Source: Verrucomicrobiota bacterium
GTDB taxonomy: Bacteria > Verrucomicrobiota > Verrucomicrobiia > Limisphaerales > CANJSG01
Assembly: GCA_043775315.1 (NCBI GenBank)
Contig: JAYVSO010000125.1
Span: forward strand, 78,670 to 142,669
Length of the DNA: 64,000 nt
Reading direction: 5' to 3'
The position numbers and the translations under genes are program-made. The notes below the pieces were generated by a model. It had not been told where the DNA came from. It saw only the letters and a list, made by a program, of their open reading frames with translations, and did not search any database. Of the stretch, positions 34,333 to 53,394 are shown in pieces. The number at the start of each line of letters is the position of its first letter. Positions within the stretch are counted from its first letter, which is position 1.

Positions 34333-34385
34333 CTCACCGAGACTAGGGAACGAAGCGGGCGAGGGGAACTGGGAATCTGGTGGGT

Positions 34386-34434
34386 CCAGCCGCGCTGCGG
34401 CTGGACGCCGAGTCGCAGCGCGACTCGGCCCACC
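34386..34434. repeat. Compound palindromic element (two adjacent hairpins) - intergenic copy
   Basis: CAGCCGC-GCT-GCGGCTG followed by GAGTCGC-AGC-GCGACTC. ~42 nt nearly identical to 51102..51150 inside the giant ORF. Confidence 0.6.
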
Positions 34435-36857: not shown

Positions 36858-37037
36858 AAGCTGCGGAGCAGCGAAAGAAAGTAGCCCACGGCGTGAGCTG
36901 TGGGTTTGGCGTCCGAAGAGAATCAAGCCCTGGAAGGGCGACAGAAGCGCGTCTGCCGCTCCTCCGGAGCTCCTGCGTTCGGCGCGGCGAACCCCGGGCT
37001 CACGCCCGGGGCTGCTGTCTTCCGCTGCTCCGCAGCT
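36858..37037. mobile_element. REPIN-like element copy 1 (inverted REP doublet)
   Basis: Terminal inverted repeats GCTGCGGAGCAGCGAAAGAAAGTAGCCCACGGCGTGAGCTGTGGGT ... GGGCTGCTGTCTTCCGCTGCTCCGCAGC, plus an internal CGGAGGAGCGG / CCGCTCCTCCG hairpin. Confidence 0.7.
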
Positions 37038-39402: not shown

Positions 39403-39650
39403 CGAAATTGGAGCGACAGGCCGCGAGTCCACGAGCAATTCAATGTCGCGAAGCGACCCAGGAAAGCAGCCAGCCACGAAGTGGCTGGAAGGGCGTTCCA
39501 AGTGAGCGCCAAGTCCTGAAGGGACGATGGAACCGCATGCGCCAGCAAGAGGCTCCGACGTCTCTCCGGGACTTGCGCCTCTGGGTGGCGGGTGGTCCAG
39601 CCACTCTGTGGCTGGCTAATATCCGAAGGCCCTTCGGGCCAAACTCCCAG

Positions 39651-39827
39651 CACCGGAGGTGCGACAGACAGTAGCCCACAGCGTAAGCTGTGGGTCTGGT
39701 ATCCAGGAGGGATCAAGCTCCGGAGGAGCGGTAGAAAGTCTTCTGCCGCTCCTCCGGAGCTGACTTCCACCGATCGGTTAACCCCGGGCTCACGCCCAGG
39801 GCTACTGTCTTCCGCTGCTCCGCAGCT
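39651..39827. mobile_element. REPIN-like element copy 2
   Basis: GACAGACAGTAGCCCACAGCGTAAGCTGTGGGT ... GGGCTACTGTCTTCCGCTGCTCCGCAGC. Perfect internal hairpin CCGGAGGAGCGGTAGAA/TTCTGCCGCTCCTCCGG. Confidence 0.7.
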
Positions 39828-43050: not shown

Positions 43051-45174
43051 ATGCAATACCTCATCTACGCCGCCATCGCGTTTGTCGTCCTGATCCCCAT
43101 CGCGATCACGATCGTGCTCTGCATCCGCAAGATCCACCCCGGCAAGGCCGGCATCAGCGTCGGCCTCGGAGGGCTGCGCGTGGCCTTCGACTACATGATC
43201 CGCCTGCCGCTGGTGCAGAACTTCGAGGAGATGGACATCTCCGTGAAGAAGCTGGAGATCCACCGCAAGGGCAAGGACGGCCTCGTCTGCAAGGACAACA
43301 TCCGCGCCGACATCTCCGTGGCCTTCTACATCCGCGTCGAGGCCACCGTGGACAGCGTGAAGAAGGTTTCCCAGATGCTCGGCGTCGAACGCGTGTCCGA
43401 CATGGCCCAGCTCCGCGAGCTGTTCGAGGCCAAGTTCTCCGAGGCGCTCAAGACCGCCGGCAAACAGATGGAGTTCCACGAGCTCTTCACCGAGCGCATC
43501 AAGTTCCGCGAACAGATCCAGGCCACCATCGGCAAGGATCTCGACGGCTTCTTCCTCCAGGACGTGGCGATCGACTACCTGGAGCAGACGCCGCTCGACC
43601 AGCACGACCCCAGCAACGTGCTCGACTCCGAGGGCATCCGGAAGATCACCGAGATCACCCAGCGCGAACGCGTCAGCGCCAACGAATTTTCCCAGCGCGC
43701 GCAGGTCCAGATCGAGAAGGAGAACGCCGACGCCGACATCGCCAAACGCGAACAGCGCCGCCGCAACGAGGAGGACACCGCCAAGCAGACCCGCGCCATC
43801 AACGAGGTGAAGGCCAACGAGGAGGCCGAGGCCCGCAAGGTCATCGAAGGTCGCCGCCAGGAAGTCGAAGGCAAGCGCCTGGAAGCCGACGAATCCATCC
43901 AGTTGCGCACCCAGGACATGAACCGCGCGGTGCAGGAACGGGAGTTCACCGTGAAGAAGGAACGGCAGCGCCTCGAACAGGAGGCTGTGCAGGAAGGCGA
44001 GGAGGCCCGCGTCCGCCGCGAACGCACGGTGTCGCTCGCCGAGATGGACAAGGAAGTGAAGGTCAACGAGGCCGCCGTCGAAGTGGAACGCAAGCGCGCC
44101 ACCGTCGTCTCCGAACAGAAGGCCGTCACCCAGCAGGAGGAGGAGAAGCGCAATATCGAGGCCCGCATGACCGCCGAACGCGTCCGCGAGGTCACGCTCA
44201 TCGAAGCCGAGATGAACGCCAAGAAGGACCAGACCGAGAAGGTCGTCGCCTCCGAGGCCCAGAAGGAAGTCGCGCGTAACGTCGCCGAAGCCGACAAGAT
44301 CCGGACCATCACCGCCGCCGAAGCGGGCCGCGAAGCCGCCTTGCGCGATGCCGAACGCATCCAGACCACCGCAGACGCCGAAGCCAAGGTCGCCGACAAA
44401 CGCCGCCACGCCGCCGAGCAGGAAGCCGAAGGCACCGCCGCCCGCGAAGCCGCCAAAGGCCTCGCCGAAGCCAAGGTCACCATCGCCAAGGCCGGGGCCA
44501 TGAAGATTGAGGCCGCCGCCATCAAGGAGGTTGGTCTCGCCGAAGCCGAGGTCATCAAGGCCAAGGGCATGGTCCAGTCCGAGAACACCCAGACCTTGGC
44601 AGAAGCCGACGCCACCGGCATCGAGGCCCGAGGCACGGCCGAGGCCAAGTCGATCCATCTGAAAGCCGACGCCATGAAGCTGCTCCACGCCGCCGGCCAG
44701 CAGCACGAGGAGTTCAAGCTCCGCCTCGCCAAGGACCGCGACGTCGAACTCGCCGGCATCCACGTCCAGCGCGACGTGGCCCAGGCCAACGCCCAGGTCG
44801 TCTCCGAGGCGCTCAAGACCGCCAAGATCGACATCGTCGGCGGCGAGAACGACTTCTTCGAGAAGATCGTCCGCAGCATCGGCACCGGGAAATCCGTGGA
44901 CCGCATGGTGCAGAACAGCGCCACGCTCACCGACATCAAGGAGACCTTCTTCAACGGCGACCCCGAGCACTTCAAGACCCAGCTCCGCCAGTGGGTCGCC
45001 GACTTCGGGATCAAGACCGAGGATCTGAAGAACCTCACGCTGTCCGCCCTGCTCGCCAAACTCGTCGCCTCCACCGACGACGCGGGAGTGAAGGCCACCA
45101 TCAAGTCCGCCCTCGCGCTGGTGAAGGAGAAGGGAATGGGAGAGGTGAAGGCGGAGACAGTGGTGAAGGCATGA
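43051..45174 (+). CDS. Flotillin family (SPFH/band-7) membrane protein with extended E/A/K-rich coiled-coil
   Basis: N-terminal TM helix, SPFH domain (ISVGLGGLRVAFDYMIRLPLVQN...DNIRADISVAFYIRV), then ~400 aa of EA-repeat coiled coil. Confidence 0.8.
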   Translation: MQYLIYAAIAFVVLIPIAITIVLCIRKIHPGKAGISVGLGGLRVAFDYMIRLPLVQNFEEMDISVKKLEIHRKGKDGLVCKDNIRADISVAFYIRVEATVDSVKKVSQMLGVERVSDMAQLRELFEAKFSEALKTAGKQMEFHELFTERIKFREQIQATIGKDLDGFFLQDVAIDYLEQTPLDQHDPSNVLDSEGIRKITEITQRERVSANEFSQRAQVQIEKENADADIAKREQRRRNEEDTAKQTRAINEVKANEEAEARKVIEGRRQEVEGKRLEADESIQLRTQDMNRAVQEREFTVKKERQRLEQEAVQEGEEARVRRERTVSLAEMDKEVKVNEAAVEVERKRATVVSEQKAVTQQEEEKRNIEARMTAERVREVTLIEAEMNAKKDQTEKVVASEAQKEVARNVAEADKIRTITAAEAGREAALRDAERIQTTADAEAKVADKRRHAAEQEAEGTAAREAAKGLAEAKVTIAKAGAMKIEAAAIKEVGLAEAEVIKAKGMVQSENTQTLAEADATGIEARGTAEAKSIHLKADAMKLLHAAGQQHEEFKLRLAKDRDVELAGIHVQRDVAQANAQVVSEALKTAKIDIVGGENDFFEKIVRSIGTGKSVDRMVQNSATLTDIKETFFNGDPEHFKTQLRQWVADFGIKTEDLKNLTLSALLAKLVASTDDAGVKATIKSALALVKEKGMGEVKAETVVKA

Positions 45175-45215
45175 CGGAGTTCGCCCGCCAAGAAGCCAAG
45201 TGATACAAGTAACCC

Positions 45216-45431
45216 ATGAAAACGATCCACGCGGTCTTTGAGCAGGGCGTCTTTCGTCCTTTGGAAAAGGTCGAGCTTCCGGAAAACACGGAAGTTGAGT
45301 TTGAGCCCCGCACCACCCTTGCGCGCCAACCGATGAAGGAAGGCATGGCCGCCATCTACGCCATTCTGTCCGAACGCTACGAGACCGGCGAAACTGACGT
45401 CGCGGCCCGGCACAACGAGCATCAGCCATGA
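45216..45431 (+). CDS. Type II antitoxin (DUF104/AF2212-like) paired with PIN toxin
   Basis: MKTIHAVFEQGVFRPLEKVELPENTEVEFE. 71 aa. Stop overlaps the PIN gene start (ATGA). Confidence 0.6.
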   Translation: MKTIHAVFEQGVFRPLEKVELPENTEVEFEPRTTLARQPMKEGMAAIYAILSERYETGETDVAARHNEHQP

Positions 45432-45826
45432 CGGTCTTCCTCGATACCATCGGCCTGCTGGCCGTCTGGGACAAGACCGACCAATGGCACACTGCGGCAA
45501 CGGTCAGCCTTGCTGGATTGCAGGCGGCCGGGGCGGAACTGGTCACGAGCGCGTATGTCCTGCTGGAGTGTGGCAATGCCGCCGCCCGTCGGCCGTATCG
45601 CCCGTCGGTCATCCGCTTGAAGCAGCGACTCGAAGCGGAGCGATGCCTGATCTTGCCGACCGAAGAAGATTGGTCTGTCGCTTGGAACGCCTACATCCGC
45701 GGCGAAGCCGACTCGGCTGGCATCGTGGACCAGGTCTCCTTCGCCGTGATGCGGCGGCTGGGGATCGCCACCGTCTTTACCAACGACAGACACTTCCTCG
45801 CCGCCGGATTTGAAACCCTGTTTTGA
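45428..45826 (+). CDS. vapC: PIN-domain toxin (VapC-like ribonuclease)
   Basis: MTVFLDT (first acidic residue), E at ~40, D..., and C-terminal TNDRHF. 132 aa. Confidence 0.8.
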   Translation: MTVFLDTIGLLAVWDKTDQWHTAATVSLAGLQAAGAELVTSAYVLLECGNAAARRPYRPSVIRLKQRLEAERCLILPTEEDWSVAWNAYIRGEADSAGIVDQVSFAVMRRLGIATVFTNDRHFLAAGFETLF

Positions 45827-45844
45827 AATGAAACCTGACCGCTT

Positions 45845-45965
45845 AGTCCTGTTCGCCAGACTCGCCGACGATGCCGACGTGAAATACGCGATCAAGTCCG
45901 CCCTCACGTTGGTGAAGGAGAAGGGAATGGGGGAGGTGGGGGCGAAAAAGGCGTTGGAGAGCTGA
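45845..45965 (+). pseudogene. Duplicated remnant of the flotillin 3' end
   Basis: Encodes LFARLADDADVKYAIKSALTLVKEKGMGEVGAKKALES*, against the flotillin C-terminus LLAKLVASTDDAGVKATIKSALALVKEKGMGEVKAETVVKA*. ~120 bp direct repeat flanking the vapBC cassette. Confidence 0.6.
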
Positions 45966-45998
45966 TCCGCCTGATATTCAGCCCAACCCAGTAACCAA

Positions 45999-46568
45999 AT
46001 GAACAGGTTCCTAGAAAAAGCCTTTCCACCGGACCTTGTTCTATCCCTTGGGCCGATCAGTGATCGCTTGATGGCCCCAAGCAACCTAGACCCGAGCGAC
46101 GTATTTGCCGTCATCGTCGCCTCTGGGCCAATCGAGATCCCCTACAGAATTTACGTTGAACCACTCACTCCCCAAGAGATCGACCATCTCCCCGAAAAAA
46201 TTCGGGGTGCTGTCGCCTGCTGGTTTTCAAGACATCACAACGGGCGAATTCGTGAGGATTTCTTACGAAGCATCACCGCTTATGATTCAGACTGGATTAT
46301 TGGCTACGTGTTGCCACTAAGCGGAGAATATGTTCTCCCAATTTTGGAGTTGATCTGGGACCGACGAGATCGTTTTGACATCTCAGTCCTGAGATCTTGG
46401 CTCAAGAACAACGATTCGTTCTACCATACCGTCAGGCGGCGAGTGGTTAGCTACTGGAATTGTTATCATAGACCAGGGAACCCGGATTTTCGGAAATATG
46501 TCGGCGGTAGACTGATCGATTTTTTTGACGGCTATCGAAAGCCTGCGTGCAACGCAATCTCAGCATGA
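45999..46568 (+). CDS. Hypothetical protein, low-GC orphan
   Basis: 189-aa ORF with markedly lower GC, between vapC and the REPIN/RAYT. No motif recognised. Confidence 0.4.
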   Translation: MNRFLEKAFPPDLVLSLGPISDRLMAPSNLDPSDVFAVIVASGPIEIPYRIYVEPLTPQEIDHLPEKIRGAVACWFSRHHNGRIREDFLRSITAYDSDWIIGYVLPLSGEYVLPILELIWDRRDRFDISVLRSWLKNNDSFYHTVRRRVVSYWNCYHRPGNPDFRKYVGGRLIDFFDGYRKPACNAISA

Positions 46569-46663
46569 AAGGGATTTTCGACAGCCGTATGCAACGCCCC
46601 AACGGGGCACCGCCTTCTAGCCCAGGATTGGCGCAACCGCGCCTACCCTGGGAACGCTTGTCC

Positions 46664-46867
46664 TCAGGCGCGGAGCGCCGAAAGAAAGTAGCCCACAGCG
46701 TGAGCTGTGGGTCCTCGTCCCCATTGATTCCCCAGCCCCGGAGGGGCGACAGAATCCTTCGCGCCAATCCCGCGCTCCGCATTCTTTCGCCCCTCCTGGG
46801 CTCGTCCGATTTCCCATCGCAACCCACGGCTCACGCCGTGGGCTACTTTCTGCCGGTGCTCCGCACC
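46664..46867. mobile_element. REPIN-like element copy 3 (5' flank of RAYT)
   Basis: GGAGCGCCGAAAGAAAGTAGCCCACAGCGTGAGCTGTGGGT ... ACCCACGGCTCACGCCGTGGGCTACTTTCTGCCGGTGCTCCGC. Confidence 0.75.
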
Positions 46868-46937
46868 TATGCACTGAGCCTCTGCCGGAATCACACCGCT
46901 CGACCTAAGATTCACTAGAAATCCGACCTGACCCACC

Positions 46938-47390
46938 ATGCCCCGCACTTACACCCAGCTTCTGAACCACATCGTGTTCAGCACGAAGGAGCGCCGGCCC
47001 ACGCTGACGCCGGAGCTGCGGGCGCGGCTGTTTCCCTACATGGGCGGGATCATCCGGCAGCTCGATGGAGCGGCCTTGCTGATCAACGGGGTCGCGGATC
47101 ACGTCCACATCCTCGCGTCGCTGCCCGCTACGGCGGCGTCTTCGGAGTTTGTCGGCAAGCTGAAGGCGAATTCCTCGAAATGGGTGCATGAGAACTTCCA
47201 GGAACATCGCGCCTTTGCATGGCAGCTCGGATACTCCGCCTTCAGCGTAAGCGTTTCGCAGAAGCAGGGAGTTTTGGACTACATCGCCGGACAGGAAGAA
47301 CACCACCGGAAGGTGTCTTTTCAGGAGGAGCTGATCTCGTTCCTGAAGAAGCACGAGGTCGAATATGACGAACGCTACGTGTTTGAATGA
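46938..47390 (+). CDS. REP-associated tyrosine transposase (RAYT; IS200/IS605 TnpA-like HUH Y1 transposase)
   Basis: 150 aa. HUH motif HVHILASLP, catalytic Tyr region LGYSAFSVS, and N-terminal YTQLLNHIVFSTKERRP typical of TnpA_REP. Flanked on both sides by REPINs. Confidence 0.8.
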   Translation: MPRTYTQLLNHIVFSTKERRPTLTPELRARLFPYMGGIIRQLDGAALLINGVADHVHILASLPATAASSEFVGKLKANSSKWVHENFQEHRAFAWQLGYSAFSVSVSQKQGVLDYIAGQEEHHRKVSFQEELISFLKKHEVEYDERYVFE

Positions 47391-47440
47391 AGATGGACGC
47401 CACCAACGCCATAAGCTCTGAAGCGAACCCATCTAGCCAC

Positions 47441-47634
47441 GGAGCGGCGGCAGACAGTAGCCCACAGCGTGAGCTGTGGGTTCTGATCACCCTGAATCTT
47501 AAGCCCCGGAAGGGCGGCAGAATTGTTCGCACCAATCGAGCTCCGACAGCTCTATCGCCCCTCCGGGGCTCATTCACTTTTGGCAGCCAACCCACAGCTC
47601 GCGCTGTGGGCTACTTTCTTTCGGTGCTCCGCAC
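47441..47634. mobile_element. REPIN-like element copy 4 (3' flank of RAYT, 5' of giant ORF)
   Basis: GGAGCGGCGGCAGACAGTAGCCCACAGCGTGAGCTGTGGGT ... ACCCACAGCTCGCGCTGTGGGCTACTTTCTTTCGGTGCTCCGC. Confidence 0.75.
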
Positions 47635-47690
47635 CTTGGGCCGGCTGCCGACGGTTCGGTCTTTTGACCACCATTTTGCCTCTTTGACCC

Positions 47691-50600
47691 ATGGCTGACC
47701 CCACTCCTCCAGCCCAGCCTTCCGCCACCGCCCCGTCCGCCCTCGTGGGCGCGACCTACGAGATCATCCGGCAACGGCTGGCGACGAACTCGTCCACGTT
47801 GCGCGAGCGCATGGGCAAGCTCGACGCACGGCGGCAGGAGGTCTTCGGGCGGATCGAGTCCAAGCTCCTCCAGGCCGACCGTGTCACCACCGCGCACAAC
47901 TGCATGCCGCGCGACATGGTCCCGCTCGGCCACGGCCGGTTCCTCTTCGCCTTCAACGTCCGGTTCGGCCTCAAGAAGGAGATGGATCTGGCGGATGTCT
48001 TCGCCATCTACCGGCGCGACGAGGCCACGGGCGGGTTCAAGGAGGAGTCGCTGGAGCCGCTCCAGGACAAGCAGTTCGTCACCGACTTCAAGCGCCTCTA
48101 CAACGTCTATGAGAAGACCGCGTTCAGGAAGTTCGCCGTCATCGGCGGGAACCTCTACGCCAAGTTCGGCACCGGCGCGTCGCTCAACGACTACGCCGTC
48201 TTCAAGTGGGCCTTCAACGACGGCAACCTCCGCTACCTCGACGGCCGCTCCGAGGCCGAATACCGCCGCGTCGGCTATCCGCCCACGCACGATTTCCGCT
48301 GGCAAACGCCCGACCGCGAGTCCTACCGCTACGGCGACCATCCGCACGTCTCCATCGCGGAGCGCGTCTTCGTCGAGTGCGTCGGCGGCGACCTCACCAT
48401 CAAGGTCGAGGACAACACCGCCACCGGCGAGGGCATCTATTCGGAGTCCGTGGACGACCGGCACCAGAAGGTGGACGACGCCGAAATCGCCTTCGCGGAG
48501 CTGGACCATCTGATCCTGCTCAAGGTCCGGCCCTACAAGGAAACCGCCGCCCGCTTCTTCATCTTCAACGAGAAGCTCCGCTCCGTCGTGCGCGTGGACT
48601 CCATCGGCGACGCCTGCGTGCGGTTGCCGGAGGAACACGGCCTGATCTTCCCCGACGGCTACTACCTCGGCACCGGCGAGCTGAAGCGTTTCGACGCGAA
48701 GGAAACCGGGCTGATCCTGGAGCGCGTGGTCCATTCGCCCAACGGCGAGGATTCGCTCTACGTCTTCCACGGCCGCGCTTCCGGCGAACACGTCCTGCTG
48801 CCCTACCGGTTGATCGAGCAGAAGGTGGAGGAACGCATCGCCTGCCACGGCTTCGCGCTGTTCCCCAACGGCCAGCTCATCCTCTTCCGCGCGGACGACG
48901 TGCCGCAGAAGCACCACCAGATCCAGCTTCGGCAGACGCCCTTCTACCAACTCGGCTTCGAACCTTCCGGCCAGAAGGACGCCTTCCTCTACCAGGTCGG
49001 CAACAAGGACGTGGTCCGCTGCCTAGCCGAGTGCAACGAGGTGCTGACGCTCGCCGGCAAGGACACGCCCTACGCCGAGCTGTATTCCGACCTCGTGCGC
49101 CGCTGCACCGCGATGCTTGATGCGTATCCGTGGCTCACGAGCCCGGATGGCTTCCAGATCAACGACGCGCTCCAGCAGCTCCGCGAGATCGCGGACAAGG
49201 CGGTGGATGAATTCGCCAAGGTCCGCCGGCTCCAGCACGAGGCCGTGCTGCGCATTGCCGACGTGAAGAAGCGTTGCGAGGAACGGTTCCAGGCCGCGCG
49301 CCGGGCCGCGTTCTCCAAGCTGGAGGACTTCGTCCACAACCTCGCCGCGCTCCGCCATCTCCGCGGCGAACTGATCATCACGCGCGAAGTCCGCTACATC
49401 GATCTCGCCGCTCTCGATACGCTGGAGAAGGCCGTCATCGCACAACTCGCCGAGCTTTCCGCCTTGTGCGTGAAATTTCTGCTGAAGCCCGAGGCGCTCG
49501 AGCCCTACCGCAAGCAGGCCGCCGAACACCTCGCCGCCGTGGACAAGGTCGCGAAGGTCGCCGACGGCCGGAAGTTGGAGAAGGCCGTGGCCGACGCGGG
49601 CGGCGAGCTGGAGATGCTCATCGAGATCGTCAACAGCCTGAAGATCGACGACGCCACCGAGACGACGCGCATCATCGACAGCGTCACGGCCGTCTATTCG
49701 ACGCTCAACCAGGTGAAGGCGGCGCTGAAGAAGCACCTCCAGGCGCTGGTCGCAACAGAAGGCGCGGCCCAGTTCAACGCCCAGCTCAAGCTCCTCGGCC
49801 AGTCCGCCTCCAGCTACCTCGACCTCTGCGACACGCCGGAGAAGTGCGACGAGTATCTCAACCGCCTCACCGTCCAGCTTGAGGAGATGGAGGGCGCGTT
49901 CGCCGGGTTCGACGAATACACCGTCCAGCTTTCCGACCGCCGCACCGAGTTCTACGAAGCCTTCGAGCAGCGGAAGATCGCGCTCGTCGAGCAGCGCAAC
50001 AAACGCGCCGGCGCGCTCCTGACCGCCGCCGAACGCATCCTCAAGGTCATCCAGAACCGCCTCGCCGGGTTCAAGGCGCTGGAGGAGATCCACACCTACA
50101 TGGCGTCGGACCTGATGACGGCGAAGGTCCGCGAAACGATCGAGCAGTTGCTGGAGTTGGGCGATTCGGTGAAGGCCGACGACCTGCAGGGCCGGCTCAA
50201 GACCGTGCAGCAGGACGCGGTGCGGCAGCTCAAGGACAGGCAGGACCTGTTCGTCGATGGCACGTCCGTCATCCAGCTCGGCAAACACAAGTTCAACGTC
50301 AACACCCAGCCGCTGGACCTGACCATCGTCCAACGCGAAGGCCAGCCGCACTTCCACCTGACGAGCACGAAGTATTTCGACCCGATCACCGACACGGACT
50401 ACCTCGCCACGCGGCAGGTCTGGGATCAGGAAGTGATCTCGGAGAACGCCGACGTTTACCGCGCCGAGTATCTCGCGTGGCAGATGATGAACGCTTCCAA
50501 GCTCGAAGACTTCCTCGCCCGCCCCGAGGACCAGCGCCTTGCCGCCGTGCAGGCGTTCATGGCCGCGCGTTACCAGGACGGCTACACCAAGGGCCTCCAC

Positions 50601-53114
50601 GACCTCGACGGCTCGCGCATTTTCTCCGTGCTGGCCGAGACGCATCTCGCCCTGCAACGCGCGCGATTCCGCCCCGAAGCGCGGGCTTGCGCGGTGGTTT
50701 ACTGGAGCCGCTTCTGCCCCGCTGAAACCCGCACGCTCTGGACTGCCAAGCTTGCGGCTTTCGGCGAACGCAACCGGCTCTTCCCCGGCGATCCGGTGCA
50801 GCAGGACTACGTCGCCGCGCTCCAGAAACTCATCGGCGAGTTCCTGAAAACCCAGCCGCTCTATCCCGAGACGCTGTCCGCCGAAGCCGGCGAATACCTG
50901 TTCCACGAGCTGAGCGACGGCGAGACCTTCACCGTCACCCGCGAAGCCGACCACTTTGCCACGGCGTTCCAGCAACACCTCGTCGCCAAGGGCCGCGACG
51001 ACACCTTCGCCGCCGCCCGCGCCGCCTTGAACAGGCATCCTTCCAGCGAGCTGGAACTCGTGCGCGACTGGGTGAAGGGATTCCTGCTTTCGCAGGTGGG
51101 TGCGGCTGCGCTGCGGCCGAACGCCGAGTCGCAGCGCGACTCGGCCCACCACACGTCGCATCTCGAAGAAACCACCGCCATCCTCTTCTGCGGCGACGCC
51201 CTGCCGCGCGCGGCCGTCCATGCCGAATCCCGCCGCGTGCTCGAAGCCATGCGCGGCGCGCATCCGCGCATCGAGGTCAGCCGCTACACCTTCGACTACC
51301 TCGACTTTACCGCGCGCCTGCGCCGTTTCGAGACCGAGGCCGCACCGCGCTTCGAGGCGTATCACCGGATCAAGGGGCAGTTGCTCGACCGCGAACGCAA
51401 GCGGCTCCGGCTCGACGAATTCAAGCCGCGCGTCCTCTCGTCCTTCGTCCGCAACCAGCTCACCGACCGCGTCTATCTCCCGATGGTCGGCGACAACCTC
51501 GCCAAGCAGATCGGCGCGGCCGGCGCGGCCAAGCGGACGGATCTGATGGGCCTGTTGCTCCTCATTTCGCCGCCCGGCTACGGCAAGACCACGCTGCTGG
51601 AATACGTCGCCAGCCGGCTCGGCATCGTCTTCGTGAAGATCAACGGCCCGGCCATCGGCCACGCCGTCACCTCGCTTGATCCCGAGGAGGCGCCCAACGC
51701 CGCCGCCCGCGAGGAGATCTCCAAGCTGAACCTCGCGCTGGAGATGGGCGACAACGCGTTGATCTGCATCGACGACATCCAGCACTGCAACCCGGAGTTC
51801 CTCCAGAAGTTCATCTCCCTCTGCGACGGCCAGCGGAAGATCGAGGGCGTCTGGCGCAAGCAGTCCCGCACCTATGACCTGCGCGGCCGCAAGGTCGTCG
51901 TGGTCATGGCGGGCAATCCCTACACCGAGAGCGGGCTGAAGTTCAAAATCCCCGACATGCTCGCGAACCGCGCCGACACCTACAACCTGGGCGACATCAT
52001 CGGTGGCAACGCCGAATGGTTCCGCGCCAGTTACCTCGAAAACGCCGTCACCTCCAACGCCACCCTCGCCCCGCTCGCCGTCCGCAGCCAGGGCGACATC
52101 CGCGCCTTCATCCGCATGGCCGAGACGGGCCAGCGCACCGCCGAGGGATTGGAGGGAACCTATTCCGCGCAGGAGCTGGACGAAGTGCTCTCCGTGTTGA
52201 AGAAACTCGTCGCCGTCCGCGACGTCGTCATGCGGGTGAACGAGGAATACATCGCCTCCGCCGGCCAGGCCGACGAGTTCCGGACCGAGCCCGCGTTCAA
52301 GCTCCAAGGCTCCTACCGCAACATGAACCGCCTCGCGGAGAAGGTCGTCGCCATCATGGACGACGACGAAGTCCGCGCGCTCGTCGTCGTCCATTACCGG
52401 GGCGAATCCCAGACGCTGACCACCGGGGCCGAGGCGAACCTGCTCCGCTTCAAGGAACTCATCGGCGAACTCAAACCCGACGAAGCCGCGCGTTGGGCGG
52501 ACATCAAGAAGACCTTCAAACGAAACCAGTTCACCCGGGGCGTGGACCCGGGCGATCCAGTCGGCCGCCTGGTGGCCCAGCTCGCGCAGTTCCAGGCCGG
52601 GCTCGAATCTATCCAGACCACGCTCGCCAGCGCCGCCGCGCGGTCGAAGGAACCCGTCGTGCTCGATGTCAGCTCGCTCGGCCAGAGCCTCGAATCGCTC
52701 CGCACCACGCTCGAAGACCGTCTCACCCGCGTCATCGCGGCGACGACCCCTCCCGCCGCCGCGCCTGCCTCGACCGCCGGCCTGGAGAAGATCGGCGCGC
52801 AGCTTGGGGAGGGGTTGAAAGCCTTGGGTGAAGATCTCCGCCGTAACGCCGGCGTCGTCCACGACGCGGCCATCACGGGCAAGATCGACAGCCTCTCGCA
52901 TGAGCTGGAGATGATCCACAGCACCATGGCGTCGTTGAAGGATCTAGCCACGCAGCAGCGCGACCATCTCCGCACCGCCGAGGAACTCCTCGCCACCCGG
53001 GCCAAGCAGGGCACGGTGGAAGTGGAGCTGACGCAGGAGATGCTCAGCAACGAACGCGTATTCATGGAACGCTTCCAACAGGTGCTCGACGACGCGCAGA
53101 AGCCGAAGACGTGA
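47691..53114 (+). CDS. Giant (1807 aa) uncharacterised protein with MoxR/AAA_5-like ATPase module in C-terminal quarter and multiple coiled-coil segments
   Basis: ATG at 47691 follows the REPIN. Continuous ORF with coding-like composition. Walker A ISPPGYGKTT (nt 51576-51593), Walker B ALICIDDIQH, sensor-like VVVMAGNPY. The N-terminal ~480 aa and the middle region have no recognised motif. Coiled coil at ~490-800 and 1650-1800. Confidence 0.7.
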   Translation: MADPTPPAQPSATAPSALVGATYEIIRQRLATNSSTLRERMGKLDARRQEVFGRIESKLLQADRVTTAHNCMPRDMVPLGHGRFLFAFNVRFGLKKEMDLADVFAIYRRDEATGGFKEESLEPLQDKQFVTDFKRLYNVYEKTAFRKFAVIGGNLYAKFGTGASLNDYAVFKWAFNDGNLRYLDGRSEAEYRRVGYPPTHDFRWQTPDRESYRYGDHPHVSIAERVFVECVGGDLTIKVEDNTATGEGIYSESVDDRHQKVDDAEIAFAELDHLILLKVRPYKETAARFFIFNEKLRSVVRVDSIGDACVRLPEEHGLIFPDGYYLGTGELKRFDAKETGLILERVVHSPNGEDSLYVFHGRASGEHVLLPYRLIEQKVEERIACHGFALFPNGQLILFRADDVPQKHHQIQLRQTPFYQLGFEPSGQKDAFLYQVGNKDVVRCLAECNEVLTLAGKDTPYAELYSDLVRRCTAMLDAYPWLTSPDGFQINDALQQLREIADKAVDEFAKVRRLQHEAVLRIADVKKRCEERFQAARRAAFSKLEDFVHNLAALRHLRGELIITREVRYIDLAALDTLEKAVIAQLAELSALCVKFLLKPEALEPYRKQAAEHLAAVDKVAKVADGRKLEKAVADAGGELEMLIEIVNSLKIDDATETTRIIDSVTAVYSTLNQVKAALKKHLQALVATEGAAQFNAQLKLLGQSASSYLDLCDTPEKCDEYLNRLTVQLEEMEGAFAGFDEYTVQLSDRRTEFYEAFEQRKIALVEQRNKRAGALLTAAERILKVIQNRLAGFKALEEIHTYMASDLMTAKVRETIEQLLELGDSVKADDLQGRLKTVQQDAVRQLKDRQDLFVDGTSVIQLGKHKFNVNTQPLDLTIVQREGQPHFHLTSTKYFDPITDTDYLATRQVWDQEVISENADVYRAEYLAWQMMNASKLEDFLARPEDQRLAAVQAFMAARYQDGYTKGLHDLDGSRIFSVLAETHLALQRARFRPEARACAVVYWSRFCPAETRTLWTAKLAAFGERNRLFPGDPVQQDYVAALQKLIGEFLKTQPLYPETLSAEAGEYLFHELSDGETFTVTREADHFATAFQQHLVAKGRDDTFAAARAALNRHPSSELELVRDWVKGFLLSQVGAAALRPNAESQRDSAHHTSHLEETTAILFCGDALPRAAVHAESRRVLEAMRGAHPRIEVSRYTFDYLDFTARLRRFETEAAPRFEAYHRIKGQLLDRERKRLRLDEFKPRVLSSFVRNQLTDRVYLPMVGDNLAKQIGAAGAAKRTDLMGLLLLISPPGYGKTTLLEYVASRLGIVFVKINGPAIGHAVTSLDPEEAPNAAAREEISKLNLALEMGDNALICIDDIQHCNPEFLQKFISLCDGQRKIEGVWRKQSRTYDLRGRKVVVVMAGNPYTESGLKFKIPDMLANRADTYNLGDIIGGNAEWFRASYLENAVTSNATLAPLAVRSQGDIRAFIRMAETGQRTAEGLEGTYSAQELDEVLSVLKKLVAVRDVVMRVNEEYIASAGQADEFRTEPAFKLQGSYRNMNRLAEKVVAIMDDDEVRALVVVHYRGESQTLTTGAEANLLRFKELIGELKPDEAARWADIKKTFKRNQFTRGVDPGDPVGRLVAQLAQFQAGLESIQTTLASAAARSKEPVVLDVSSLGQSLESLRTTLEDRLTRVIAATTPPAAAPASTAGLEKIGAQLGEGLKALGEDLRRNAGVVHDAAITGKIDSLSHELEMIHSTMASLKDLATQQRDHLRTAEELLATRAKQGTVEVELTQEMLSNERVFMERFQQVLDDAQKPKT
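51102..51150. repeat. Compound palindromic element, in-frame inside the giant ORF
   Basis: GCGGCTGCGCTGCGGCCGAACGCCGAGTCGCAGCGCGACTCGGCCCACC, ~42 nt identical to 34386..34434. Translates as AAALRPNAESQRDSAHH. Confidence 0.6.
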
Positions 53115-53182: not shown

Positions 53183-53394
53183 AGGCGCGGAGCGCCGACA
53201 GAAAGTAGCCCACAGCGTGAGCCGTGGGTCAGCGATGCCCGAAACTCCCCAGCCCCGGAGGGGCGGCAGAAGGTTTCGCTGGCTCCTGGGTCAGCTCGTT
53301 CTTTCGCCCCTCCGGGGCTCGTCCGGTTTCCCATCGCAACCCACGGCTCACGCTGTGGGCTACTTTCTGCCGCGCCTCCGGCGCTTTAACCCCG
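53183..53394. mobile_element. REPIN-like element copy 5 (3' of giant ORF)
   Basis: CAGGCGCGGAGCGCCGACAGAAAGTAGCCCACAGCGTGAGCCGTGGGT ... ACCCACGGCTCACGCTGTGGGCTACTTTCTGCCGCGCCTCC. ~90% identical to copy 3. Confidence 0.75.

Follow-up and report, generated by a model that had tools for sequence, protein, structure and literature searches.

The REPtrons, or REPIN–RAYT systems, of Escherichia, Pseudomonas and Stenotrophomonas combine a low-copy, positionally stable gene for an HUH/Y1 (single catalytic tyrosine) enzyme, the RAYT (REP-associated tyrosine transposase), with flanking hairpin repeats of its own, the REPs (repetitive extragenic palindromes) (Nunvar 2010; Bertels & Rainey 2011; Ton-Hoang 2012; Messing 2012; Corneloup 2021). 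The repeats form inverted doublets with a spacer, known as REPINs (REP doublets forming hairpins), which are dispersed in intergenic DNA and carry (G)TAG 5' of the hairpin foot, and the gene is under purifying selection and inherited in the manner of a housekeeping gene. We find a similar combination of features at a locus in a Verrucomicrobiota genome, within a stretch of 64,000 nucleotides (GenBank assembly GCA_043775315.1, contig JAYVSO010000125.1, positions 78,670 to 142,669; hereafter the window). Here, a gene for a Y1 protein of 150 amino acids (aa) lies between two inverted repeat doublets, further copies of which occur nearby. This locus is likely to be a REPtron- or REPIN-like system whose enzyme is an IS200-like Y1 protein of the subclass 1.2 type and not a classical RAYT. 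In other words, a first-pass annotation that read it as REP/RAYT was right in kind and wrong in family.

Several described systems bear on this interpretation. Like the insertion sequences (ISs) of the IS200/IS605 family (IS200, IS608, ISDra2), the locus has hairpin ends and an enzyme with the Y1 fold and the HUH and Tyr motifs; the nearest solved structures also belong to this family. Its ends are inverted, however, whereas those of IS200/IS605 elements are not, both of their hairpins lying on one strand. IS200/IS605 elements are also multi-copy, near-identical and often accompanied by tnpB, whereas the window holds one gene copy without an adjoining tnpB. Among the Y1 enzymes, subclass 1.2 has been described as close to IS200 but not IS-like, of low copy number, distributed in Cyanobacteria and Bacteroidetes, and without REPs ("REP: no") (Quentin et al. 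2018, PMC6006769). The family studied here shares with it the motifs DH[IV]H, WQ and YIxxQxEHH, a length of about 148-150 aa and a conserved C-terminal tail, and differs from its published description in being flanked by a defined REP unit and in occurring in Verrucomicrobiota, Acidobacteriota, Planctomycetota and other groups. Bertels et al.'s "RAYT-like IS200 Group 3" (2017, PMC5581495), which has no duplicates, no plasmid copies and abundant flanking 16-mers, is probably the same clade as subclass 1.2, the equivalence with either group being judged from motifs and not from reference sequences. The TIRtrons or TIRYTs of Di Nocera et al. 2013 likewise place tyrosine-transposase genes within long inverted repeats, some of them "double palindromic", and include families from Acidobacteria and Planctomycetes; unlike the protein described here, theirs are long class 2.1 proteins with a Y...NP motif. 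Different again are the class 3 Y1 proteins (Quentin et al. 2018), which have about 178 aa, the motifs NHVH and YV..EQ, and hairpins with a CnGA foot.

The Y1 gene and its repeat doublets

The gene and the doublets, numbered R0 to R5, are located in the window as follows.

46938..47390, plus strand: Y1 gene, encoding a 150-aa HUH/Y1 protein, IS200-like, with the TnpA_Y1 subclass 1.2 signature
36859..37037: R1, between polysaccharide deacetylase-like and Gfo/Idh/MocA oxidoreductase genes, both on the minus strand
39444..39641: R0, a decayed doublet with weak model matches at 39444-39488 (-) and 39597-39641 (+), 25-28 bits
39649..39827: R2, between UDP-glucose dehydrogenase and SDR genes; absent from the closely related locus L130
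46666..46868: R3, upstream of the Y1 gene; left unit 46666-46711, right unit 46823-46868
47435..47636: R4, downstream of the Y1 gene; left unit 47435-47480, right unit 47591-47636
53183..53385: R5, right after the stop codon of a 1807-aa DUF3686/AAA gene

The annotation had described an HUH Y1 transposase homologue between two inverted-repeat elements, with further intergenic copies near 36858, 39651 and 53183. The protein indeed spans the full Pfam Y1_Tnp profile (E=2.7e-22, 79.6 bits), R3 and R4 adjoin its gene, and the further copies are R1, R2 and R5. To these we add the sixth, decayed R0, which lies 8 nt from R2 and is common to the window and L130. The layout is thus that of a REPIN/REPtron, with a Y1/HUH gene flanked by inverted REP doublets that are also present at intergenic sites away from the gene; all six doublets are intergenic.

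The annotated 24-mer GTAGCCCACAGCGTGAGCTGTGGG, searched with up to three mismatches, gave 8 matches in the window against 0 in 100 shuffles. The right arms of R1 and R2 escaped this search because their stems carry compensatory changes (CCCCGGGC/GCCCGGGG). Repeat finding and alignment recovered five complete doublets of 179-203 bp, each composed of outer arms in mirror orientation around a second, inner inverted repeat, AGCCCCGGAGGGGCGRCAGAA ... TTCTnTCGCCCCTCCGGGGCT. Both arms of this inner repeat are themselves 5-bp hairpins, and the nested internal hairpin that had been proposed is therefore real. As in the definition of a REPIN, the doublets comprise two inverted REPs with a short spacer and fold into a long hairpin; R3 as single-stranded DNA folds at -73.9 kcal/mol (z=-13.4). 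The inner modules lie at 46734-46754 and 46782-46802 in R3 and at 47502-47522 and 47550-47570 in R4. Identity is 80% between R1 and R2, 81% between R3 and R4, and 85% between R3 and R5 although these are 6.5 kb apart. The proposed subfamilies (copies 1 and 2, copies 3 and 5) are therefore borne out, while the identity of about 90% given for the second pair applies only to its right half (93% over the right 82 nt). The best-matched pair of arms is the outermost one around the Y1 gene, 46666-46712 and 47590-47636, which are 94% complementary.

The enzyme is where the annotation went astray. It had named the protein TnpA_REP, yet the NCBIfam model REP_Tyr_transpos gives only 19.7 bits (cut-off 80), the IS200 equivalog gives 61.2 bits (cut-off 55), and the catalytic Tyr115 lies within YIAGQEEHH and not in a Y...NP motif. 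The other motifs are H55-V-H57 (DHVH) as the HUH and W95-Q96. Across the family alignment, H55-V-H57 and Y115 are invariant, and the C-terminal tail is conserved at F128, E131, L136, H139 and D144. The protein thus carries the signature of TnpA_Y1 subclass 1.2 (DHVH, WQ, YIxxQxEHH, 150 aa), and a unit-flanked relative, L106, has its exact consensus YIKNQKEHH. Among PDB sequences only IS200-type TnpAs were matched, and the Escherichia coli RAYT (4ER8) was not among the matches at E<=1. The predicted structure (mean predicted local distance difference test score, pLDDT, 86) retrieves the IS608, ISDra2 and Sulfolobus TnpAs at E 5e-9 to 1e-7, including the DNA-bound IS608 and ISDra2 forms at about 1e-8; the weakest of the structural matches is 4ER8 at 1e-5. 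We therefore rejected membership in the class 2 RAYT/TnpA_REP proteins (groups 1-5), given the absent Y...NP motif, the REP_Tyr_transpos score and the position of 4ER8 well behind the IS200-type folds. The enzyme also differs from that of REPtrons in its length and Y...Q..HH motif and in having none of the C-terminal RAYT features.

The annotation would have counted a grouping with an IS200 TnpA that is associated with a TnpB, and not with RAYTs, against its own reading. The grouping with IS200 does occur, but no tnpB-like open reading frame (ORF) lies beside the Y1 gene in any of the gene contexts inspected in the window and its relatives, and the protein fits the subclass that is not IS-like. 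No sigma-70-like promoter was found around the gene. Its relatives number in the thousands: the best 120 of at least 8000 candidates from a word-index search are 65-91% identical to it and nearly all 150 aa long, and a full scan gave 274 cluster representatives (50% identity) with E<=1e-30. Some relatives (P0241-P0248, P0250, P0253 and others; about 270-300 aa) have two tandem Y1 domains per chain. Such proteins are possibly "dimers" joined in one chain, the enzymes of this family normally acting as dimers.

The repeat unit and Rfam family RF01687

The annotation had defined the REP unit as GTAG followed by an 8-bp hairpin. The hairpin is real, and it is half of a longer unit of 46 nt with two hairpins. 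Read on the GTAG strand, the unit begins with A, followed by hairpin A (5 bp, loop GGA), CG, a linker, (G)TAG and hairpin B (8 bp, loop GTGA). In R1 it is the stem of the right hairpin B that carries the compensatory changes. The conserved head is TAG and not GTAG, the preceding G being present in 33% of units in a wider unbiased sample. With two hairpins, and with the inner hairpin of the doublet as a third module, the unit differs from the REPs of REPtrons.

All ten arms of the five window doublets match the Rfam family RF01687, Acido-Lenti-1 RNA, end to end, at 44-56 bits against a gathering score of 37. In the Rfam orientation the unit reads hairpin B (8 bp, loop TCAC), GGCTAC, linker, CG, hairpin A (5 bp, loop TCC) and a final T, and the annotated "GTAG plus hairpin" is the reverse complement of its first half. 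Past the terminal T, conservation drops abruptly and the flanks are random; no target motif was seen beyond the tips of the unit.

Acido-Lenti-1 was rated "probably RNA" on the basis of covariation, as a trans-acting RNA of Acidobacteria and Lentisphaerae, and the sole remark on its context was that it is sometimes near group II introns (Weinberg et al. 2010). Judged on titles and abstracts, none of the listed papers that mention Acido-Lenti-1 links it to a transposase. The units described here correspond to RF01687 in sequence and two-hairpin structure, with all arms above the gathering threshold. Unlike the trans-acting small RNA (sRNA) of the record, they behave as the terminal units of a DNA repeat that is tied to a Y1 gene, and their range adds Verrucomicrobiota, Planctomycetota, Thermodesulfobacteriota and more.

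Spread and shared plan across phyla

A degenerate pattern, GTAGCCCNNNGCGTGAGCNNNGGG, matched at least 119 stretches in a species-representative genome collection. Using a covariance model built from the window arms and the published seeds, we found the full two-hairpin unit at 41 Acidobacteriota, 17 Verrucomicrobiota and 17 Planctomycetota loci, and at a few others (Thermodesulfobacteriota, Sumerlaeia, a "Deltaproteobacteria" metagenome-assembled genome (MAG) and others). The unit sequence is nearly constant across phyla, unlike that of classical REPs, which are genus-specific.

A further 25 Opitutae-type loci have only GTAG and hairpin B, a shorter REP reminiscent of the GTAG families of Opitutus terrae. 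Since GTAG REPs of O. terrae and Rhodopirellula baltica were catalogued by Di Nocera et al. 2013, the annotation overstated the case in calling such systems barely described in the Planctomycetota–Verrucomicrobiota–Chlamydiota (PVC) group. In Opitutaceae (L010, L044, L047, L065, L067, L069 and others) these compact REPs often stand as back-to-back pairs 12-36 bp apart. They have the hairpin-B module in common with the 46-nt unit and are without hairpin A, which hints that the classical GTAG REPs and the 46-nt family may be modularly related.

The 192 strong model matches include 48 (-,+) neighbour pairs, 45 of which are spaced 128-176 bp start to start. Such pairs are present in Acidobacteriota, Verrucomicrobiota and Planctomycetota and follow a common plan: outer hairpin A, CG-linker-(G)TAG, hairpin B, a spacer of about 22 nt, inner hairpin A with GRCAGA, a variable core of 10-50 nt, and then the mirror image, for a total of 180-220 bp. 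Each doublet thus has four hairpin-A modules, outer and inner in both halves. By a strict rule the inner hairpin A was recognised in 37 of 45 left and 35 of 45 right halves, always 17-29 nt from hairpin B.

In the window itself, none of the six doublets is further than 10 kb from the Y1 gene, and the other 47 kb have none. Taken by itself, this could indicate an artefact of local duplication, tandem or segmental, or else a repeat that is confined to the locus and unconnected to the gene. We consider this very improbable. Unrelated genes separate the window doublets, and the unit is dispersed in other genomes, given that it lies on two to four separate contigs in each of at least about a dozen MAGs (per-genome counts being lower bounds) and that matches of the published RF01687 seed occur at dispersed sites along the Koribacter versatilis chromosome and on many Lentisphaera contigs.

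Association of the unit with the Y1 gene

The link between unit and gene is clearest when loci are chosen by protein. Among 80 metagenomic loci picked solely by Y1 protein patterns (43-60% identity), 63 have the unit, and 34 show a canonical bracket, in which a (-) unit precedes the gene and a (+) unit follows it, each at 45-65 bp. Of the tabulated unit matches, 135/150 fall within 400 bp of the Y1 gene, a zone that makes up 34% of the bases. In five independent contexts of close homologues, all unit matches lie within about 300 bp of the gene and none elsewhere in 10 kb. Conversely, a Y1 gene is present within the 8-kb stretch at 6 of 119 repeat-picked loci; the flanks were read at four of these, and there gene and unit are no more than about 100 bp apart. 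Taken together, the Acido-Lenti-1 unit looks like the DNA partner of this Y1 enzyme family across several phyla of soil bacteria.

The arrangement of gene and units takes several forms. At L125, L127, L103, L106 and L026 the Y1 gene takes up precisely the place of a doublet's variable core, with an inner hairpin-A module on either side; L126 and L077 show half of this layout, and at L082 the outer units bracket the gene with no inner modules seen. The window and its nearest relatives L124, L120 and L130 have a whole doublet on each side of the gene. Because the gene occupies the doublet core in relatives, the gene-less 200-bp doublets can be regarded as the same element minus the ORF. We infer that the gene-in-core form, the commonest among relatives, is ancestral and that the gene-less doublets are miniature derivatives. 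At L077 (3120-3573), from Thermoanaerobaculia, a deletion from about residue 45 to about residue 95 has removed the HUH region of the unit-flanked gene. Intact units still stand on both sides of what looks like a copy in decay.

At L125 (4904-5562) and L126 (4760-5563) the whole unit-gene-unit block stands between nuoK and nuoL. As it is placed inside the nuo operon and co-oriented with it, the block must tolerate read-through transcription.

This nesting also raises the possibility that the unit-gene-unit block is an active autonomous IS200-like insertion sequence with long composite inverted ends, selfish and spreading horizontally, with the doublets as its MITEs (miniature transposable elements with inverted repeats). 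Arguing for such an element, most lineages have the gene placed precisely inside the doublet core, near-identical units occur in at least three phyla, the protein passes the NCBI IS200 model, and the block occupies different sites in different lineages, either nuoK-nuoL or beside the DUF3686 gene. The behaviour of the gene over time, which bears on this reading, is considered below.

Conservation of local hairpins

The stems of the unit covary strongly. In a sample chosen by protein and not by repeat, paired cells amount to 98.4%, compensatory changes are present in 12 of 13 pairs, and double-change cells number 360 against 94 in shuffles; slid controls pair at <=45%. Over 2459 cells, the deviations from Watson-Crick pairing comprise 12 G-T, 24 A-C and 13 others, so that G-T is not enriched over A-C. 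As G-U pairs are almost absent, there is no wobble signature and no strand preference.

The covariation applies to each local hairpin. Local stems are 98.1% Watson-Crick, whereas at the same positions the arms of one doublet share only 87% identity with each other; they differ in stem B in 21 of 45 doublets and in stem A in 26 of 45. The conserved feature is therefore each local hairpin and not the long arm-to-arm hairpin, and selection on the latter was dropped as an explanation. This sets the doublets apart from REPINs, in which the long hairpin is the characteristic structure; here the arms often differ in stem sequence.

Strong covariation is also what a structured RNA would produce, and together with the "probably RNA" rating of Weinberg et al. 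2010 it speaks for the 46-nt unit being selected at the level of RNA, either as the Acido-Lenti-1 sRNA or as an element acting in cis, in which case its nearness to the Y1 gene would be regulatory or incidental. Furthermore, hairpin B followed by CTACTTTCT resembles a terminator, and doublets could serve as bidirectional attenuators or mRNA stabilisers, like the REPs of E. coli. On the strand leaving the doublet, the combination scores as intrinsic-terminator-like at 7 sites, against 1.3 expected, among them:

46823-46842, strand leaving the doublet: hairpin B and T-rich linker
46692-46711, strand leaving the doublet: hairpin B and T-rich linker
47591-47610, strand leaving the doublet: hairpin B and T-rich linker

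Counter to this, the units occur in both orientations as mirrored pairs, with four hairpin-A modules per doublet, and virtually no G-U pairs or strand bias in the non-Watson-Crick cells are present. They bracket the Y1 gene at fixed distances across phyla and form the exact ends of a 179-bp indel (below). Doublets also sit inside co-directional operons (nuoK-nuoL, the polysaccharide cluster), which argues against strong termination. We thus regard a primary RNA function as improbable. A secondary effect of the unit at the RNA level is possible, and the terminator-like sequences suggest that doublets could act as weak bidirectional attenuators.

Precise presence or absence of a doublet

Comparison of insertion sites among relatives, which the annotation had proposed as a check for mobility, revealed a precise presence/absence polymorphism. 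R2 is missing from L130, where the flanking proteins are 91-97% identical to those of the window. To within about 1 nt, the gap corresponds to 39649-39827 (179 bp), starting with the A of the AGC tip and finishing with the T of GCT, and no target duplication is visible at the site in the window compared with L130. Exact ends without a target-site duplication are what the peel-and-paste chemistry of IS200/IS605 elements predicts, and the indel is consistent with precise insertion or excision of the Y1 type.

In a more distant orthologous operon (P0125 contigs), neighbouring genes are only 1-6 bp apart at the places that R0/R2 and R1 occupy in the window, which leaves no room for doublets. At the R1 site itself, the L130 sequence stops 36 bp past the oxidoreductase gene, and the gene that follows downstream in L131 is a different one. 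The arms around the syntenic Y1 gene vary in number and state between relatives.

An apparently domesticated gene at a stable position

The Y1 gene has kept its chromosomal position while its sequence diverged. In the window and in L130, L120, L124 and L127 it lies between a protein of about 707-723 aa of unknown family and a protein of about 1800 aa with DUF3686, DUF7902 and AAA domains. Identities to the window are as follows.

L130: Y1 protein 95%, 707-aa neighbour 97%
L120: Y1 protein 89%, 707-aa neighbour 90%, giant neighbour 85%
L124: Y1 protein 80%, 707-aa neighbour 75%
L127: Y1 protein 69%, 707-aa neighbour 76%, giant neighbour 71%

The ratio of nonsynonymous to synonymous substitution rates (dN/dS) of the gene is 0.08 against L120 (synonymous divergence, dS, 0.71) and 0.05 against L130 (dS 0.50). 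The Y1 proteins of the two nuoK-nuoL contigs are 70% identical to each other. Single copy in the window, purifying selection and conserved synteny support the conclusion that the Y1 gene behaves as a domesticated gene.

These observations bear directly on whether the block is an active insertion sequence. Position has been retained over 69-95% protein identity with co-diverging neighbours, the same protein in the same context recurs in four independent assemblies, and there is no second copy of the gene in the 64-kb window. Moreover, the matching groups have been described in the literature as low in copy number and free of duplicates. Carriage by phages was considered and rejected on finding only 2 matches among 2.9 million viral contigs, a scarcity that likewise argues against horizontal spread. 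An active, selfish element is thus unlikely, if clearly less so than an RNA function.

Mechanism, weight of evidence and significance

For a REPtron-like system with an IS200-type enzyme, the mechanism can be sketched by analogy. IS608, ISDra2 and E. coli TnpA_REP bind folded hairpins on single-stranded DNA and cleave with the tyrosine and an HUH-bound metal, the position of the cut being specified in part by a short sequence 5' of the hairpin foot. By the same logic, the Y1 enzyme would bind the folded hairpins of DNA exposed as single strands, for instance at replication forks, recognising the hairpin modules and the TAG-containing linker. It might then cut at the outer tips of the unit via Tyr115 and the HUH metal site. 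Gene-less doublets would be excised, inserted or copied in trans, while the Y1 gene itself would stay fixed; such mobilisation in trans is what we would infer from the related systems.

Several points weigh against this interpretation. The inverted ends are unlike the construction of IS200/IS605 elements. Assignment of the enzyme to subclass 1.2 is based on signature motifs and length and not on a phylogeny with reference members. The confinement of the window doublets to the surroundings of the gene, noted above, also counts here. R2 is a single clean indel, compatible with either insertion or excision, and the relative in which it is missing is a metagenome scaffold. Finally, the covariation counts come from alignments fitted to the model.

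A broader proposal can be made more tentatively. The Acido-Lenti-1 unit and the subclass 1.2 enzyme may constitute a second partnership of the REPIN/RAYT type, on the IS200 side, possibly domesticated independently of the classical RAYTs. The recognition module would have remained almost unchanged over at least three phyla, and the gene-in-doublet form would be the surviving "autonomous" ancestor. We rate the odds of this as slightly short of even.

Parts of the finding were anticipated by prior work, namely the RAYT-like IS200 group of Bertels et al. and the GTAG repeats of PVC bacteria, and it is not categorically new. It gives the orphan family RF01687 a concrete biological context, and annotation should change in thousands of soil and freshwater genomes. 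It also supplies a probable DNA partner for a Y1 clade described as having none. If the broader proposal is correct, a 15-year-old Rfam sRNA family would be a DNA element, and the gene-in-doublet form would be a living intermediate between IS200 elements and REPtrons. With gene-inside and gene-less forms coexisting, the family offers a test bed for the origin of REP systems from IS200-like elements and for the handling of inverted ends by Y1 enzymes. Because the unit is so conserved, biochemistry on a single enzyme/oligonucleotide pair could generalise widely.

Neighbouring genes and other repeats

The giant downstream neighbour of the Y1 gene (window 47691-53114) belongs to DUF3686 ("ATPase involved in DNA repair"), DUF7902 and AAA, and has orthologues in L120, L124, L127 and L130. 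A functional link between this "DNA-repair ATPase" and the Y1 enzyme was considered and is unlikely, since in other lineages the Y1 gene is found inside the nuo operon. The upstream neighbour of about 707 aa gave no Pfam match.

Directly to the left of R3, a segment of about 1.4 kb (45170-46654) is absent from L130. It holds a PIN-domain ORF at 45428-45826 (Pfam PIN, E=2.5e-9) and a 189-aa ORF at 45999-46568 with no family match. Within it, 45865-45959 duplicates the 3' end of the 707-aa gene (45074-45168) at 78% identity. The segment thus looks like an insertion beside the repeat.

The window also contains two copies of a 56-nt double-hairpin palindrome (GGTGGG...CCCACC), at 34379-34434 and 51095-51150, which are 91% identical and may represent another REP-like family, of intragenic type. 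At one of the two sites the palindrome falls within the 1807-aa DUF3686 gene and codes for VGAAALRPNAESQRDSAHH; the peptide is kept in the L127 orthologue and replaced in that of L120.

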